A DNA stretch of 64,000 nt from Fistulifera solaris (lineage: Eukaryota): assembly GCA_030295235.1 (NCBI GenBank), contig AP026145.1:124001-188000 (forward strand), read 5' to 3'. Position numbers and translations under genes: made by a program. Shown here one piece after another: positions 22,210 through 28,395 of this stretch (within the stretch, counting starts at the first letter, position 1; each line of letters opens with the position of its first letter). A model generated the notes under the pieces. It made no database searches. It had not been told where the DNA came from and saw only the letters and a list, made by a program, of their open reading frames with translations.

Positions 22210-23646
22210 ATGTCGAGTCTATCGTACAAAGATAATCCTGGCGAAACATCAACATATGGCGAGGACGCCTTTCCGCCCACGGCGAGCGTCTTTCGATCGA
22301 ACGACGACAACGCCTCGACCGCGACCTCACGCCGTCGCAAGATTTGCTGCTGCTTGCCACGCCCGAAATCGCGTCGTGGTGTTTGGTTGTTGCGCGCAGT
22401 CTTTGCCTTTGGATTGCTGCTAATGGCTGTCATCGGAGTGGCTGTCTATCTTGGACTACAGAGTTCTTCGTCCACGCCCCGCAATGTCGGTCCCTTGATC
22501 ACGTCCGAAGAGATGGATCGCTACTTGCGTCAAGCCGTAGGAGCCAATGAATTGGAAAACAGAGACTCGTACACCAGTCTAGCCTACCGGTGGATGCTAC
22601 AAAATCCTTTCTCGTTACAAGAATTCCGCATGCGTGTGGAAGATCGGGTTTTGCAGCGATATGCCCTCGCGTGCTTGTACTACGCCACCTACCGCGTCAA
22701 CAACGACTGGCTTCGTTACAATCAAGGTTTGATGGATGCTCAACCTCAAGACATTTTTCCTTGGACCGAAAGCCAAGGATGGTTGGTGTACGCCAACGAG
22801 TGTGACTGGTACGGTATTACTTGCAATCAGTTCGGCTACGTCACCAGTTTGGACCTGGGCTCGAACGATTTGACAGGAGAAATCCCTCCGCAGTTGCAGT
22901 ACTTGAGTCACGGCTTAGAATTCTTGAATATCGAAGGCAACTACGCGTACAATGTTCATCCCCACTTTCTGGGAAAGCTGACCAATCTCAAGTACTTGTA
23001 CATGAAGGATTCATTGTTCGAGAGCGACGGTATTCCGCTGGTATTCGCTGCACTCACGAATCTGGAAGAATTTGATTGCTCGCACACCATGTTCCACGGA
23101 CCGCTACGCGAGGATATCTTTGAGAACATGGCGCAACTCCGGTATTTGGAAATTTCCGGCAATCAAGTGAACAGTACTCTGCCCCAATCCCTCATCAGTT
23201 TGCCCAATCTCAAGTACTTTTATGCTGATAATGTAGGACTGACGGGCAATTTGGAGTTTTTGCAAGACATGAGTGCCTTAGTGGAGACGTGGTTGGATCG
23301 CAATCCGACCTTAACAGGCACCCTCCCCACGATTTTGGGGCCACAGTTGGAGTCGCTCAGTTTGACACGCAACAATATCACAAGCAGCATTCCAGACGAA
23401 TGGGGTAGCCACTCCAAGTTGAAGCATTTGTGGCTGTACAGCAATTACTTGTACGGTTCCATCCCTCATTCCTTCCGAAAGTTATCTCAATTACAGACGT
23501 TTGCAGTTGAAGACAACTTGTTCACGGGAAACGTTGAACACATGTGCGCCGATTTGAGTATCCCGGATTTTCAAGTCGACTGTGAAATGGATTGCAGTTG
23601 CTGCAGTTGCTGTGGAATCGAAGAATGCACCGGTGAAAGAAGTTGA
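22210..23646 (+). CDS. Type II membrane leucine-rich-repeat protein (diatom-type LRR family)
   Basis: TM near the N-terminus, QRYALACLYYAT, ECDWYGITC cap, LxLxxNxLxGxIP repeats and Cys-rich tail DC...CSCCSCC. Confidence 0.92.
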   Translation: MSSLSYKDNPGETSTYGEDAFPPTASVFRSNDDNASTATSRRRKICCCLPRPKSRRGVWLLRAVFAFGLLLMAVIGVAVYLGLQSSSSTPRNVGPLITSEEMDRYLRQAVGANELENRDSYTSLAYRWMLQNPFSLQEFRMRVEDRVLQRYALACLYYATYRVNNDWLRYNQGLMDAQPQDIFPWTESQGWLVYANECDWYGITCNQFGYVTSLDLGSNDLTGEIPPQLQYLSHGLEFLNIEGNYAYNVHPHFLGKLTNLKYLYMKDSLFESDGIPLVFAALTNLEEFDCSHTMFHGPLREDIFENMAQLRYLEISGNQVNSTLPQSLISLPNLKYFYADNVGLTGNLEFLQDMSALVETWLDRNPTLTGTLPTILGPQLESLSLTRNNITSSIPDEWGSHSKLKHLWLYSNYLYGSIPHSFRKLSQLQTFAVEDNLFTGNVEHMCADLSIPDFQVDCEMDCSCCSCCGIEECTGERS

Positions 23647-24395: not shown

Positions 24396-24822
24396 TCTTG
24401 TTGCGTATTTTAATACAGACGGAAATTCTGTATTAATGTGTTTGTCGCATTGAACGACACCGGCCTGTTCGTGCAACGTCGACGTCATTGCAACCGGTTG
24501 AACTGAAATCTCGCGCTTGCGTCAATTGCTCTGCACGTCGTACGTGGTATCTTACCGTCTTTTCTCGCGAGCTTCAAAAAGTCAATGACGTCTCTTTCTC
24601 GTGTTGTTGGCGTGTTGTTATTACGTTTGCCGTCGCTGACATTCACTATCTTATTCTCGCTATCATTACTTCTTCATTTCCTTTAAAAGGTTTCCATCTC
24701 ATTCGCATTGAAAGAAAGGACCGCATTCATCAAAGGAAACCAAGCTTTGAAGAAGAAACGATCGCTTTCCTCCTCGCAAACTCATTTCTCCAGAACTACA
24801 TTTTCTCAACAACAAATTCATC

Positions 24823-27364
24823 ATGAGATTCTCTGCAGCCGTTTCGATGCTCTTTCTCTGCATCAATCCCCACGAGGGGTTTCAACTTTCAGGAAACTTT
24901 GCTCCTTTTGGGAAGAAAATGGCGGATGGAAAGGGAAGCAGCGCATACCTCGACAATATGAAAGCTTCATCCGCCTATGGAGCGTCCTCGCCGGCGACGC
25001 CCGTCAATGCGTTTGTAGGTGGCGCCGCCAACAACAACCAAGCTTACATTGCTCCTCCCAGTAGCTACAGTCCCTTTGGAAGGAAGATGGCGGACGGAAA
25101 GTCGAGTAGCCCTTACTTGAATGCTGTTGCATCGAATGCACCGACTTCCTCTTCTTACGAATCTTACTCGGCACCTGTCGAGATGCTCTCTGGATCCTCT
25201 CCTGTCGCTCCATCGGCTTCTACCAGTAGCTATTTGAGCAATATGGGAGGTTCGACTGCTGCTACAGCGAAGCCTGGTAACTATTCACCATTTGGTCGCA
25301 AAATGGGCGACGGAAAGTCGTCGAGTTCGTATCTGAACAATGTGGCTGGACCTTCTAAGGCTAGTGGAGGTTACAGTCCCTTTGGTAGGAAAATGGCTGA
25401 CGGAAAATCGAGCAGCCCATACTTGAATAGTGTCGCCTCCGCTACGCCAGCTTCTGCTTCTTTTACGGCACCTGTTGAGACTTCCTCTGAGCCCTCTGCC
25501 GTGGCTCAGTCGGCATCCACCAGCAGCTATTTGAGCAATATGGGAGGTGCCAGTGCTGCTAAAACCAAGCCAGGTAGCTATTCACCATTTGGCCGCAAGA
25601 TGGGGGACGGAAAGTCGTCGAGTTCTTACCTAAACACCGTCTCCGGTCCTTCGAAAGCTAGTGGAGGATACAGTCCCTTCGGTAAAAAAGATGGCAGACG
25701 GCAAATCTAGCAGCCCGTACTTGAATAGTGTTGCATCCGCTGCACCGGCTTCCTCCTCTTTTGAATCTTATTCTTCTCCTGTTCAGGCTTCTGCTCCTGT
25801 TCAAGCTTCTGAGCCTTCTGCCGTGGCTCCGTCGGCTTCTACTAGTAGCTATTTGAGCAGTATGGGAGGTGCCAGTGCCGCCAAGCCTGGTAGTTATTCA
25901 CCATTCGGTCGCAAAATGGGCGACGGAAAGTCATCTAGTTCGTATTTGAACACTGTCGCTGGTCCTTCTAAGGCTAGTGGCGGATACAGTCCCTTTGGTA
26001 GAAAGATGGCTGATGGAAAGTCGAGTAGCCCGTACTTAAACTCTGTTGCATCCGCTGCACCGGCTTCTACTTCTTACGACTTGTATGCAGCTCCCGTTCA
26101 AGCTGCCGAGCCTTCTGCTGCCGCTCCGCCTGCCTCTACCAGCAGCTACTTGAGCAATATGGGAGGTGCCAGTGCTGCAACAAGCAAGCCTGGTAGTTAT
26201 TCACCATTCGGTCGCAAGATGGGCGACGGAAAGTCTTCTAGTTCGTATTTGAACACTGTTTCTGGTCCTTCTAAGACTAGTGGCGGATACAGTCCCTTTG
26301 GTAGAAAGATGGCAGACGGCAAATCTAGCAGCCCATACTTGAATGCCGTTGCTTCCGCCGCTCCGGCTTCTACGTCGTACGATTCGTATGCAGCTCCCGT
26401 TCAAGCTGCTGAGCCTTCTGCTGCCGCCCCGCCTGCCTCTACCAGCAGCTACTTGAGCAATATGGGAGGTGCCAGCGCAGCTACAACTAAGCCAGGTAGC
26501 TATTCACCATTCGGTCGCAAAATGGGAGACGGAAAGTCTTCTAGTTCGTATTTGAACACTGTGGCTGGACCGTCTAAGGCCAGTGGTGCGTACAGTCCTT
26601 TTGGTAGAAAGATGGCTGATGGAAAGTCAAGTAGCCCGTACTTGAATTCTGTTGCATCCGCTGCTCCGGCTTCCACTTCGTACGAATCCTATTCGGCCCC
26701 TGTTCAGGCGTCTGCTCCTGTTCAAGCTTTTGAGCCTTCTGCTACCGCGCCGCCTGCCTCTACCAGCAGCTACTTAAGCAATATGGGAGGTGCCAGTGCC
26801 GCCAAGCCTGGTAGTTATTCACCATTCGGTCGCAAAATGGGCGACGGAAAGTCTTCTAGTTCGTATTTGAACACCGTCGCTGGACCGTCTAAGGCTGGTG
26901 GAGGATTCAGTCCTTTTGGTAGAAAGATGGCTGACGGCAAATCGAGTAGCCCGTACTTGAATGCCGTCGCTTCCGCGGCTCCGGCTTCTACGTCGTTCGA
27001 TTCGTATTCCGCTCCTCCTGCGTCCAGCTACTCTACCACTCCTGTTTCAGCACCACCGTCGGCAGCAACTTACTCGCCAGCCCCTGACGCGTCAGCAAGC
27101 TATGGATCTGCTCCAGCTGCTGCATCTCCATCCGCGCCTGCAACTGCTGCTTCGACTGGTTTTTCATACTTGAATACGTTGGCACCGGCGAATCCAGCTC
27201 CATTCAAGTACGCCCCAATAGACGGAAAGATGGGGGATGCGAGATCGGGAAACAGCTACTTGGATGGCCTTCGCAGCTACCAGCCAGTGTCGAATTCCTA
27301 CGGGTCACTCCAGGACTCGTTCTCAAGTGCTACGGGTGTGAATGAAATGTCTGGACGCCAGTAA
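24823..27364 (+). CDS. Predicted plastid-targeted, low-complexity tandem-repeat protein (~846 aa after removing one A at ~25684)
   Basis: Signal peptide MRFSAAVSMLFLCINPHEG|FQL. 14 copies of (Y/F)(S/A)PFG(R/K)KM(A/G)DGK plus one degenerate copy. Many synonymous differences between repeats. GGTAAAAAAGATG versus sibling GGTAGAAAGATG identifies the indel. Confidence 0.9.
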
Positions 27365-27501: not shown

Positions 27502-28395
27502 TCACACTAGAGGTTTGTCTGCGCTAAGAAAGCTATGCGTGACTTCGGTGAGACGCTCTCGAATCATCATCAGCAACGCACTTTTCAGCAGTGTATGCAA
27601 CAGCTGCAAGCGGCATCCTTGATACAAACCAGAACACCCCCTTTCGTTGTACTCTTTTCGCAACGTATTCCACAGACCGCCTTGAATCGATTGTGTCACG
27701 ATCAACATTTTTGCGCGAATGAGTGGATATGTTGCTATTGTCGCTACTAGTTTCGCAATCGCACCCAGACAGAATGCTTCCATCCAATGCAATGGCCGGT
27801 TCTGCTGATGACTGGCGTCGCGATGAAGTATTCGATGTCGGATACTGTCAAAGACAGTGTAATGAATGGACGGATTGGCGCAAAGCAAAAGAGATGGCAA
27901 TAGTCCTTTCCAGTATTTCGATAGCTCGGAAGCATATTGTTGAATTTTTGCAGAATTTAGCGAAGGAGTAGGAAATGTTTGAGGCCTGATTACACTTAGA
28001 TGTTTCATGTGAATCTGTTGCTGTTGTTGCTCTTGCGTCGAAATGACATCCAAGGGCAAAGTCACAAAAGTGTTACCGATCGCTGCTACTGCGGCCATCA
28101 GCAAGCGTAACAAGACAGACGGAGACTGCTGCCGGTGGCGCTTTCGAACGATGCGTTGAACTGAGGAATACAGATAAAAATAAACAAAATTGCTCGCCGC
28201 CGTGTGCGCGCTTTTCCATTGAATTCCAGCTAACAAGGAATGTAGTTTTGTGGAAGAAGACACCGCAGGACATCCTTGAATCAAAGTCTTGTAAACATCG
28301 AGCGGATAGAAAGACCATAAGGAAATCAAACCGGCCAAAGTACCAGCTACGGCATCACTCAGCGCCCTATTAGACTGAGTTTCGGAGGATGACAT
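27502..28395 (-). CDS. Mitochondrial-carrier-family protein, peroxisomal adenine nucleotide/CoA carrier-like (PMP34/ANT1 type)
   Basis: Three carrier signatures YPLDVYKT, LPLDVIST and YPLIRAKM; NFVYFYLYS; YWKGLLPSLLLCANPSIHY. Confidence 0.85.
   Translation of the reverse strand: MSSSETQSNRALSDAVAGTLAGLISLWSFYPLDVYKTLIQGCPAVSSSTKLHSLLAGIQWKSAHTAASNFVYFYLYSSVQRIVRKRHRQQSPSVLLRLLMAAVAAIGNTFVTLPLDVISTQEQQQQQIHMKHLSVIRPQTFPTPSLNSAKIQQYASELSKYWKGLLPSLLLCANPSIHYTVFDSIRHRILHRDASHQQNRPLHWMEAFCLGAIAKLVATIATYPLIRAKMLIVTQSIQGGLWNTLRKEYNERGCSGLYQGCRLQLLHTLLKSALLMMIRERLTEVTHSFLSADKPLV

Follow-up and report, generated by a model that had tools for sequence, protein, structure and literature searches.

A tyrosine-motif repeat protein of the diatom Fistulifera solaris, a candidate plastid scaffold and possible Rubisco linker

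What does a gene built of short, regularly spaced tyrosine motifs do in an oil-producing diatom? We examined this question in 64,000 nucleotides of Fistulifera solaris DNA (GenBank assembly GCA_030295235.1, contig AP026145.1, positions 124,001 to 188,000 of the forward strand; this whole stretch is called the window, and positions below are counted within it). Between positions 24823 and 27364, the + strand carries a gene for a protein of 846 amino acids, referred to here as the repeat protein. By sequence comparison, its repeats are copies of a three-tyrosine module that also occurs on a second protein family, and members of both families begin with predicted plastid presequences. These properties suggest a multivalent plastid scaffold, and its role could be that of a linker in the pyrenoid matrix, with form ID Rubisco as the partner. 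The partner and the condensation are what we infer, and we take this proposal as a serious possibility that falls short of an even chance.

How most diatoms condense Rubisco is an open question, and the share of global CO2 that is fixed in diatom pyrenoids is put at roughly a fifth. Phaeodactylum tricornutum has the Rubisco linker PYCO1 (Phatr3_J49957), for which BLAST brings up no homologue beyond this genus (Oh et al., PMC10288592), and a preprint gives no linker as known in other diatoms and none as found in Thalassiosira (bioRxiv 10.1101/2023.10.26.564148). Because PYCO1 is restricted in this way and no linker is known elsewhere in diatoms, the niche for a diatom linker is open. The gene described here is a concrete, sequence-defined candidate in a transformable species, for which CRISPR ribonucleoprotein editing has been reported (PMC13276009).

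Reading frame, repeats, and disorder

The features on which this section depends are as follows.

24823..27364, + strand: whole coding region of the repeat protein, 846 amino acids without the assembly's extra A; stop codon at 27362-27364
25684..25689, + strand: A6 run with an apparent +1 frameshift, from sequence comparison across units and the in-frame contigs of runs X1 and X2
25066..26991, + strand: tandem array of six higher-order units of ~101 amino acids, from Tandem Repeats Finder and unit alignment; units start at 25222, 25519, 25841, 26138, 26441, and 26762
27209..27274, + strand: degenerate last module (YAPIDGKMGDARSGNSYLDGLR), whose SYLDGLR is the sole helix in the single-sequence AlphaFold model

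In the assembly, the gene appears as two overlapping open reading frames (ORFs) on the + strand, 24823-25710 (295 amino acids) and 25661-27364 (567 amino acids), which overlap at the A-run. The junction at 25681-25694 reads GGTAAAAAAGATGG, whereas all of the other repeat units read GGTAGAAAGATGG, which places one surplus base within 25684-25689. A first-pass annotation of this DNA had singled out the A-run at 25684 as a site to confirm with reads. We therefore aligned contigs from two public runs of different studies (X1 and X2) to 25550-25830, and both runs covering the site proved to be in frame. The 840-nucleotide contig of run X1 has one base fewer at the A-run, is otherwise identical over 25550-25830, and reads in frame as G-K-K-M. 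The 147-nucleotide contig of run X2, a metagenome from a separate study, has one base fewer and two A>G differences and reads GGT AGG AAG ATG (G-R-K-M). Run X1 is possibly the source data of the assembly, and run X2 is independent of it. Because both contigs restore the frame, the gene is a single intact ORF of 846 amino acids, and the +1 frameshift is an assembly or homopolymer artifact or at most a rare allele.

The protein collections searched contained no exact copy of the 294-amino-acid sequence encoded by the first ORF and no self-match, so the gene is seemingly unannotated. The false frameshift probably accounts for its absence from the annotated protein set, and further homopolymer frameshifts may conceal genes elsewhere in the assembly.

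Next, the repeats were counted on the read-through protein. A regular expression for complete [FYW][SA]PFG[RK]K sites (motif A) finds 13 (5 in the N part and 8 in the C part), and one more lies across the frame break. With the degenerate copy YAPIDGKMGDAR, there are 15 motif-A sites, 14 of them full, which is the tally that the first-pass annotation had given. That annotation had also described an SYLS(N/S)M motif in a unit of ~100 amino acids present about six times, and this description held: 6 of the 22 [x]YL[NDS]x[VMLG] sites are SYLS[NS]M, and Tandem Repeats Finder reports a period of 303 nucleotides with 6.3 copies and 78% matches over 25066-26991. Within each 101-amino-acid unit, SYLS(N/S)MGG is followed by YSPFGRKMGDGKSSSSYLNxV, YSPFG(R/K)KMADGKSSSPYLNxV, and an A/P/S spacer. 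Successive motif-A spacings over the 15 sites are 56, 72, 30, 69, 30, 75, 30, 71, 30, 71, 30, 75, 30, and 101 residues and mostly alternate between 30 and 69 to 75. Outside the repeat gene, a six-frame scan of the 64-kb window gives 0 motif-A, 0 YLxxMGG-type, and 0 C-end-type sites and only 2 SYL-type sites. The X1 contig spans 25550-25830 twice (it "goes back 213"), and the repeat is apparently rearranged or collapsed in the X1 assembly; the copy number of the 101-amino-acid units is therefore provisional.

Between the six 101-amino-acid units, the synonymous divergence (dS) is 0.75 to 0.92 by the Nei-Gojobori method, and the ratio of nonsynonymous to synonymous divergence (dN/dS) is 0.029 in 52 motif columns, versus 0.174 in 62 spacer columns. 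Each invariant motif residue uses 2 to 4 synonymous codons (Ser2, for example, is AGT seven times and TCA six times). Thus, the repeats are old and are under purifying selection that is strongest on the motifs, in line with the earlier remark that the motifs are kept while third codon positions drift.

These data bear on whether the repeat is functional at all. It could be a pseudogene whose frameshift is real, or the tandem repeat could be open by chance, and the assembly's +1 frameshift, the seeming lack of annotation, and the absence of any run on record as RNA among those listed would agree with that. Run X1 may be RNA, but one of its contigs is 24 kb long, and it is no evidence of expression. 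However, the frame is intact in both runs covering the site, dN/dS is 0.03 to 0.17 at a dS of about 0.8 between units, and homologues in several sequence groups share both the N and C termini. We therefore consider a decaying or nonfunctional repeat very improbable.

The protein is rich in Ser (23%), Ala (16%), Gly (10%), and Pro (9.7%), contains 6.1% Tyr and 5.4% Lys, and has no Trp and one Cys. The mature form has an isoelectric point (pI) of 9.56; the net charge is +27, and 13.7% of the residues are hydrophobic. AlphaFold2 modeling of 307 amino acids gave a mean predicted local distance difference test score (pLDDT) of 42.2, a predicted template modeling score of 0.12, and a single 7-residue helix (SYLDGLR); the canonical modules have no helix in the single-sequence model. 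No Pfam family has an individually passing stretch in the repeat protein. The repeat protein is thus predicted to be intrinsically disordered, and the lack of a recognizable folded domain reported in the first-pass annotation still holds. A Pfam match to FNIII-A_GpJ (31 bits) was disregarded because its score is a sum over repeats with no stretch passing alone, and a match of BNR_assoc_N to the relative P0025, likewise a sum over repeats with no stretch, was set aside too.

The module and its second carrier family

A word-indexed protein search found 4 relatives of the repeat protein. An exhaustive phmmer search of 1.84 billion representatives found 8 at an E value of ≤0.001, one of which, the trematode repeat protein P0015, is a low-complexity false positive and was excluded from the family counts. 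A search with a profile of the repeat unit found 20 proteins at an E value of ≤0.01. The true relatives (family 1) are environmental sequences from at least 5 sequence groups, each built from one unit of ~42 amino acids with the consensus Y(L/M)xx(L/M)GG, K..(S/N)Y(S/A)(P/G)xG(R/K)K, SYL(D/N)xV. In an alignment of 10 units from 5 sequence groups (A1), Y4, Y21, Y37, and L38 are invariant (10/10). The repeat protein carries the same module, for example:

26138..26266, + strand: three-tyrosine module of ~42 amino acids common to the relatives (TSSYLSNMGG...YSPFGRKMGDGKSSSSYLNTVSG), from alignment A1 and hhalign

The pI values of the family-1 relatives lie between 9.3 and 9.9, P0016 (4.6) excepted. 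P0016 has SYLGSLGG and SSYLDGV motifs, but PKSYAPSGGIPK stands where the basic core would be; it also has an additional nonrepeat helical C-terminal region and a doubtful N terminus. Many family-1 relatives end in an extra (S/G)YL(S/E)xL, and two end in ..RW; the repeat protein has neither and ends in GVNEMSGRQ.

One weak match to the unit profile, P0034, is a protein of 910 amino acids with an unrelated N part. A search with its residues 1 to 640 returned 22 relatives, including two MMETSP Pseudo-nitzschia proteins and one protein from a "Bacillariaceae sp." metagenome-assembled genome. These proteins (P0034 to P0056, all encoded outside the window) make up family 2. All eight family-2 proteins that reach the N-terminal signal peptide have a canonical ..SDA↓F(V/A).. 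site. As laid out in P0048 and P0040, the presequence is followed by a small N-terminal domain, a hydrophobic helix, a coiled coil of ~250 amino acids, a second hydrophobic helix, a Pro-rich stretch, and a tail of modules. The tail holds 2 to 6 modules of the form SYL(E/D)SM...K.SYSPF(S/G)..K...SLYxPP and nearly always ends in ...SYLxxLxxSSxSxLKKSYSPFG(R/T/K)KPK.V.DNGLYSPGN. For family 2, Pfam gave no domain and the literature search gave no report.

We then compared the modules of the two families. The modal distance is 16 residues from Tyr1 to Tyr2 and again 16 from Tyr2 to Tyr3, both in 62 modules of 15 family-1 proteins and in 55 modules of 19 family-2 proteins. In hhalign, A1 matched an alignment of 13 terminal family-2 modules (A5) with a probability of 96.2% and an E value of 2.1e-9 over 30 columns. 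At the level of sequence, one short-linear-motif module is common to two kinds of protein, each with a predicted plastid presequence: a soluble pure-repeat type and a type that combines hydrophobic helices with a coiled coil. This recurrence on a second, membrane/coiled-coil plastid family strengthens the interpretation of the repeat protein as a scaffold.

The first-pass annotation had read the YL and YSPFG motifs as two alternating sticker types for two partners. As worded, this reading is not supported by the comparison: the YL and YSPFG motifs always occur together, with a fixed Tyr-16-Tyr-16-Tyr spacing, in both families. Two independent stickers are therefore not favored, and the YL-type and YSPFG-type motifs look like one composite module.

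Full-text literature searches, with motif strings and with terms for diatom, pyrenoid, and Rubisco-binding motifs, returned no description of the family or of the module. As far as we searched, the protein family is new, its functional kind is known, and the shared module is newly recognized. Such a module could be used to mine diatom genomes for pyrenoid-organizing proteins.

Matches to known folds were also sought. A WD40 ancestry, to which the 42-amino-acid unit and the likeness of YSPDGRKMA to FSPDGkxLA might point, was rejected because Pfam WD40 is absent at an E value of ≤1 and the pLDDT is 42. Against the PDB, profile A1 matched only designed WD40-type proteins through an (A)FSPDG-like stretch, with seven 1.9-bit matches summed over identical blades. 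PDB sequence searches with the C-terminal end, P0029, and profiles A1 and A2 (A2 is the C-terminal alignment described below) retrieved only designed Kelch-like, phage capsid, and designed WD40 proteins and nothing meaningful, and the protein atlas gave no usable match.

The predicted plastid presequence

Two features define the N terminus.

24823..24879, + strand: signal peptide, amino acids 1 to 19 (MRFSAAVSMLFLCINPHEG); top 10-amino-acid hydropathy 2.63; cleavage G↓F homologous to that of the relatives
24880..24960, + strand: transit-peptide-like start (FQLSGNFAPFGKKMADGKGSSAYLDNM), from ASAFind matrix scores; within it lie motif copy 1 and an alternative candidate site, SGN↓F

The repeat protein begins MRFSAAVSMLFLCINPHEG↓FQLSG. 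We applied the ASAFind rules and scoring matrix (Table S2) of Gruber et al. 2015 (PMC4329603), with a transit-score cutoff of 2. The repeat protein scores 4.16 at site 19 (HEG↓F) and 5.01 at site 25 (SGN↓F). Signal peptides were judged by the features of their n, h, and c regions and by hydropathy (2.3 to 2.8). Thirteen relatives are complete at the N terminus. In 12 of them, a signal peptide of 18 to 21 residues leads into G/S↓F, with transit scores of 4.16 to 5.01; the exception, P0014, has G↓L and a score of 1.27. Counted as independent groups, these 13 relatives number about 7, and Phe is present in 6. The bipartite, plastid-type presequence proposed from the single sequence in the first-pass annotation is thereby reinforced, with Phe in 12/13 relatives and scores of 4.2 to 5.0 against the cutoff of 2. 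Plastid import is well supported in silico, and we infer that it leads into the stroma.

A signal peptide could also mark a secreted cell-surface protein rich in Tyr, Lys, Ser, and Pro (frustule associated, mucilage, or adhesive), in which case the Phe after it would be incidental. The low-complexity composition, with S, A, G, P, Y, and K in abundance, would suit such a protein, as would F. solaris itself, which is a raphid pennate. Some relatives lean the same way: those of group C have 7 or 8 KxxK tetrapeptides, and P0014 has up to 14 Lys per 100 amino acids. Silaffin- and cingulin-like proteins are recognized by a signal peptide, by Ser at ≥18% with Lys at ≥10% in 100-amino-acid windows, by KxxK clusters, and by RxL processing sites. 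In the repeat protein, there are 0 silaffin-like windows, at most 9 Lys per 100 amino acids, 0 KxxK, 0 RxL, and 1 Cys, and no Pfam wall or adhesion domain matched. Moreover, the +1 Phe is kept in 12/13 relatives amid a drifting signal peptide, and the family-2 carriers of the module have canonical ..SDA↓F.. sites. The specificity of the low-confidence ASAFind class is only 0.82 (PMC4329603), which leaves some room for secretion. On balance, we regard a secreted protein as improbable.

Candidate partners and genomic setting

For a plastid protein of this kind, we propose the following mechanism. A nuclear-encoded, basic, disordered protein of 846 amino acids would be imported into the plastid via its signal peptide and Phe-initiated transit peptide. 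The mature protein would be a string of ~15 three-tyrosine modules of ~35 to 42 amino acids each, Y(L/M)xx(L/M)GG - ~11 amino acids - K..SY(S/A)PFG(R/K)K - ~11 amino acids - SYL(N/D)xV, closed by a conserved, putatively amphipathic helix, SYGSLQDSF. Through its tyrosines and the flanking Lys and Arg residues, each module would bind weakly to a plastid partner that is both abundant and oligomeric, with form ID Rubisco as the likeliest choice, and the many modules per chain would cross-link copies of that partner to form the pyrenoid matrix. Self-association via the tyrosines may add to this. Family 2, with its 2 to 6 modules, hydrophobic helices, and coiled coil, could anchor that partner on a membrane or shell.

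A further feature lies at the C terminus.

27293..27334, + strand: conserved C-terminal motif NSYGSLQDSFSSAT, amino acids 824 to 837, predicted to be helical, from alignment A2 (9/9) and AlphaFold

Alignment A2 reads, in 9/9 sequences, ...SYL(E/D)xL - 6 to 9 amino acids - V-S-S-S-Y-x-S-(M/L/F)-x-x-S-(F/L)-(A/S)-x-A-T-G, with S-x-S-Y invariant. When supplied with A2, AlphaFold predicted one helix, at residues 46 to 59 of a 68-amino-acid piece (NSYGSLQDSFSSAT), with a pLDDT of ~54; this helix and SYLDGLR are both predicted at a pLDDT of only ~50 to 54. Motifs predicted to be helical lie near the C-terminal ends: YGSLQD (repeat protein), YGSMNN (P0025/P0029), and YNSMQN (group C). Two helical motifs of PYCO1, AAEWGSMNQ and ASEWASMNT, dock into a hydrophobic cleft on the large subunit of Rubisco (PMC10288592). 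The pattern [WY][GASN]S[ML][NQ] occurs exactly once, 21 to 40 residues before the C-terminal end, in 12/27 family sequences, against an expectation of 0.01 to 0.06 per shuffled sequence. Another 11/27 match neither this pattern nor the looser [WYF][GASN][SG][MLF][NQH]; some of these are fragments, and others have variants such as YSGMA. The resemblance of the C-terminal motif to the large-subunit-binding helix of PYCO1 is a short, post hoc match among nonindependent family members, and we treat it as a lead, not proof.

The cleft on the other side of such an interaction was examined in 27 environmental form ID RbcL sequences fetched via a diatom rbcL primer. Cleft residues Y89, D92, F102, L361, F366, and F482 are invariant, and F104 is ≥90% conserved. 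The best PDB matches of the environmental RbcL are Rubisco large-subunit chains, first among them 5MZ2, which is Thalassiosira antarctica Rubisco according to Oh et al. (PMC10288592). A complex prediction of environmental RbcL and RbcS (locus L074) with the 68-amino-acid C-terminal piece, run without supplied alignments or controls, gave scores of 0.02 and 0.00 against a mark of 0.34 and counts neither for nor against binding. The rbcL primer pattern also matched green-type rbcL (form IB, 475 amino acids) and loci with the RbcL N terminus MSQSVTQRT... and an ATG-start rbcS (L019, L011, and L027); most diatom-type loci have a GTG-start rbcS.

We next compared the repeat protein with known linkers. 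Like the repeat protein, PYCO1 is a predicted plastid protein of a pennate diatom (it is a high-confidence plastid protein in ASAFind Dataset S1), is basic (pI of 10.03 versus 9.56), and consists mostly of disordered tandem repeats with aromatic stickers. The two share an aromatic-S-P-x-G core (KWSPRGGS in PYCO1 and SYSPFGRK in the repeat protein), and a similar [WY]-x-S-[ML]-[NQ] motif lies near both C termini (AAEWGSMNQ, helical, in PYCO1 and NSYGSLQD, predicted to be helical, in the repeat protein). However, Trp, KWSPR, and GTGYNP are all absent from the repeat protein, and it has ~15 copies of a 42-amino-acid module in 101-amino-acid superunits, as opposed to six repeats of ~80 amino acids in PYCO1. 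Judged by the published features of PYCO1 and by searches of the PDB sequence set with the module and C-terminal profiles (A1 and A2), which retrieved no PYCO1 chain, the repeat protein is linker-like and lies outside the PYCO1 family, as the words "different sequence" in the first-pass annotation had anticipated.

Rubisco linkers have been sought by the FLIPPer criteria, which are disorder, a pI above 8, at least 3 repeats, and structured (helical) stickers 20 to 120 residues apart (PMC11570498). The repeat protein has predicted disorder (pLDDT of 42.2), 15 motif-A sites at 30 to 101 residues, and a pI of 9.56; as to helical stickers, the models show a helix at SYLDGLR and in the C-terminal motif but none in the canonical modules. 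EPYC1 of Chlamydomonas, CsLinker of Chlorella, and SUPA1 of Ulva share this plan: they are plastid targeted and disordered, with a pI above 8, at least 3 repeats, and stickers 20 to 120 residues apart. They differ in serving the form IB Rubisco of the green lineage, in having 5 or 6 helical stickers, and in their unrelated sequences, whereas the repeat protein has ~15 tyrosine-based modules and no repeated helix by AlphaFold.

A closer parallel to the two families is the Rubisco-binding-motif network of Chlamydomonas, in which one motif occurs on a soluble linker (EPYC1) and on membrane or structural proteins (the tethers SAGA1, MITH1, and RBMP2), as the diatom module does in families 1 and 2. 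The sequences of the two motifs are unrelated, and the diatom module is known from sequence alone. By analogy, the three-tyrosine module might be the raphid-pennate counterpart of the Chlamydomonas Rubisco-binding motif and serve both proteins as address and sticker for form ID Rubisco; it would be present ~15 times on the linker and 2 to 6 times on a family-2 tether, and the two would jointly build and anchor the pyrenoid. In that case, PYCO1 would have diverged strongly from a common origin and retained just the aromatic-SPxG core and the large-subunit-binding helix at its C terminus. We put this extension forward very tentatively and think it unlikely to hold in full.

The composition also recalls FUS-type Tyr/Arg-rich prion-like domains and mussel-foot-type cationic Tyr proteins, which are S/G/Y rich with interspersed basic residues; Oh et al. 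drew the same parallel for PYCO1 (PMC10288592). Unlike these, the repeat protein has no compositionally defined domain of this type; its tyrosines belong to motifs that are strictly conserved, spaced evenly, and strongly constrained by purifying selection. Of the phase-separating scaffold proposed in the first-pass annotation, the disorder, the basic pI, and the multivalent aromatic/basic motifs under purifying selection are supported, and the idea of stickers for two partners is not favored.

Several observations weigh against a Rubisco linker in the plastid. The plastid localization is a prediction from the sequence. The ASAFind matrix rewards any Phe, and the control leucine-rich-repeat (LRR) and carrier proteins, which have no signal peptide, score 5.24 and 4.87; therefore, the weight of the presequence lies in the conservation of Phe at a homologous position amid a drifting signal peptide. 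The −3 residue of the homologous cleavage site HEG↓F is His, which is atypical, and the transit-like region has two Asp residues and already one motif copy. P0016 is acidic. FLIPPer-type features are unspecific: 13 proteins of Chlorella and 8 of Ulva have them, and in each species just one of these was the linker. The resemblances to PYCO1 are patterns of 5 to 6 residues found post hoc, and the profiles brought up no PYCO1 chain. Lastly, the named proteomes in the searched collections, those of Phaeodactylum and Thalassiosira among them, yielded no member of the family, which therefore cannot be a general diatom solution.

A plastid-imported multivalent scaffold might instead have a partner other than Rubisco: the PyShell lattice, the pyrenoid-penetrating thylakoid, another stromal enzyme complex, or mainly itself, in a homotypic Tyr/Arg-Lys condensate. 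The presequence, disorder, selection, and shared module speak for such a scaffold just as they do for a Rubisco linker, and none of them names the partner. The hydrophobic helices and coiled coil of family 2 make a membrane or shell context plausible, and PYCO1 likewise self-associates via Tyr motifs (PMC10288592). Against this stand the C-terminal helix, with its similarity to the large-subunit-binding helix of PYCO1, and the precedent that the characterized algal plastid proteins of such architecture are all Rubisco linkers or Rubisco-motif tethers (PMC13655443). We judge another partner to be the main alternative, possible though on the unlikely side. If the partner is not Rubisco, the module would still be a new plastid short-linear-motif system.

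The genomic setting of the repeat gene is that of ordinary nuclear genes. It is flanked by an LRR protein gene at 22210-23646 on the + strand (LRR_8, LRR_4, and LRR_1) and by a mitochondrial-carrier protein gene at 27502-28395 on the minus strand, and other neighbors encode DnaJ, Sas10/Utp3, and tetratricopeptide repeat (TPR) proteins. F. solaris is an allopolyploid with homeologous chromosome pairs that are ~75% identical (PMC5935921). The 90%-identity cluster representative of the LRR protein is GAX11689.1 (FisN_7Lh057), a Fistulifera solaris homeologue of 477 versus 478 amino acids; the window therefore belongs to one of the two subgenomes of F. solaris or of a near-identical strain. Short ORFs at 24488-24826 and 24708-25064 (+ strand) and at 27533-27971 overlap the 5' region of the repeat gene or the carrier gene in other frames and are probably due to chance.

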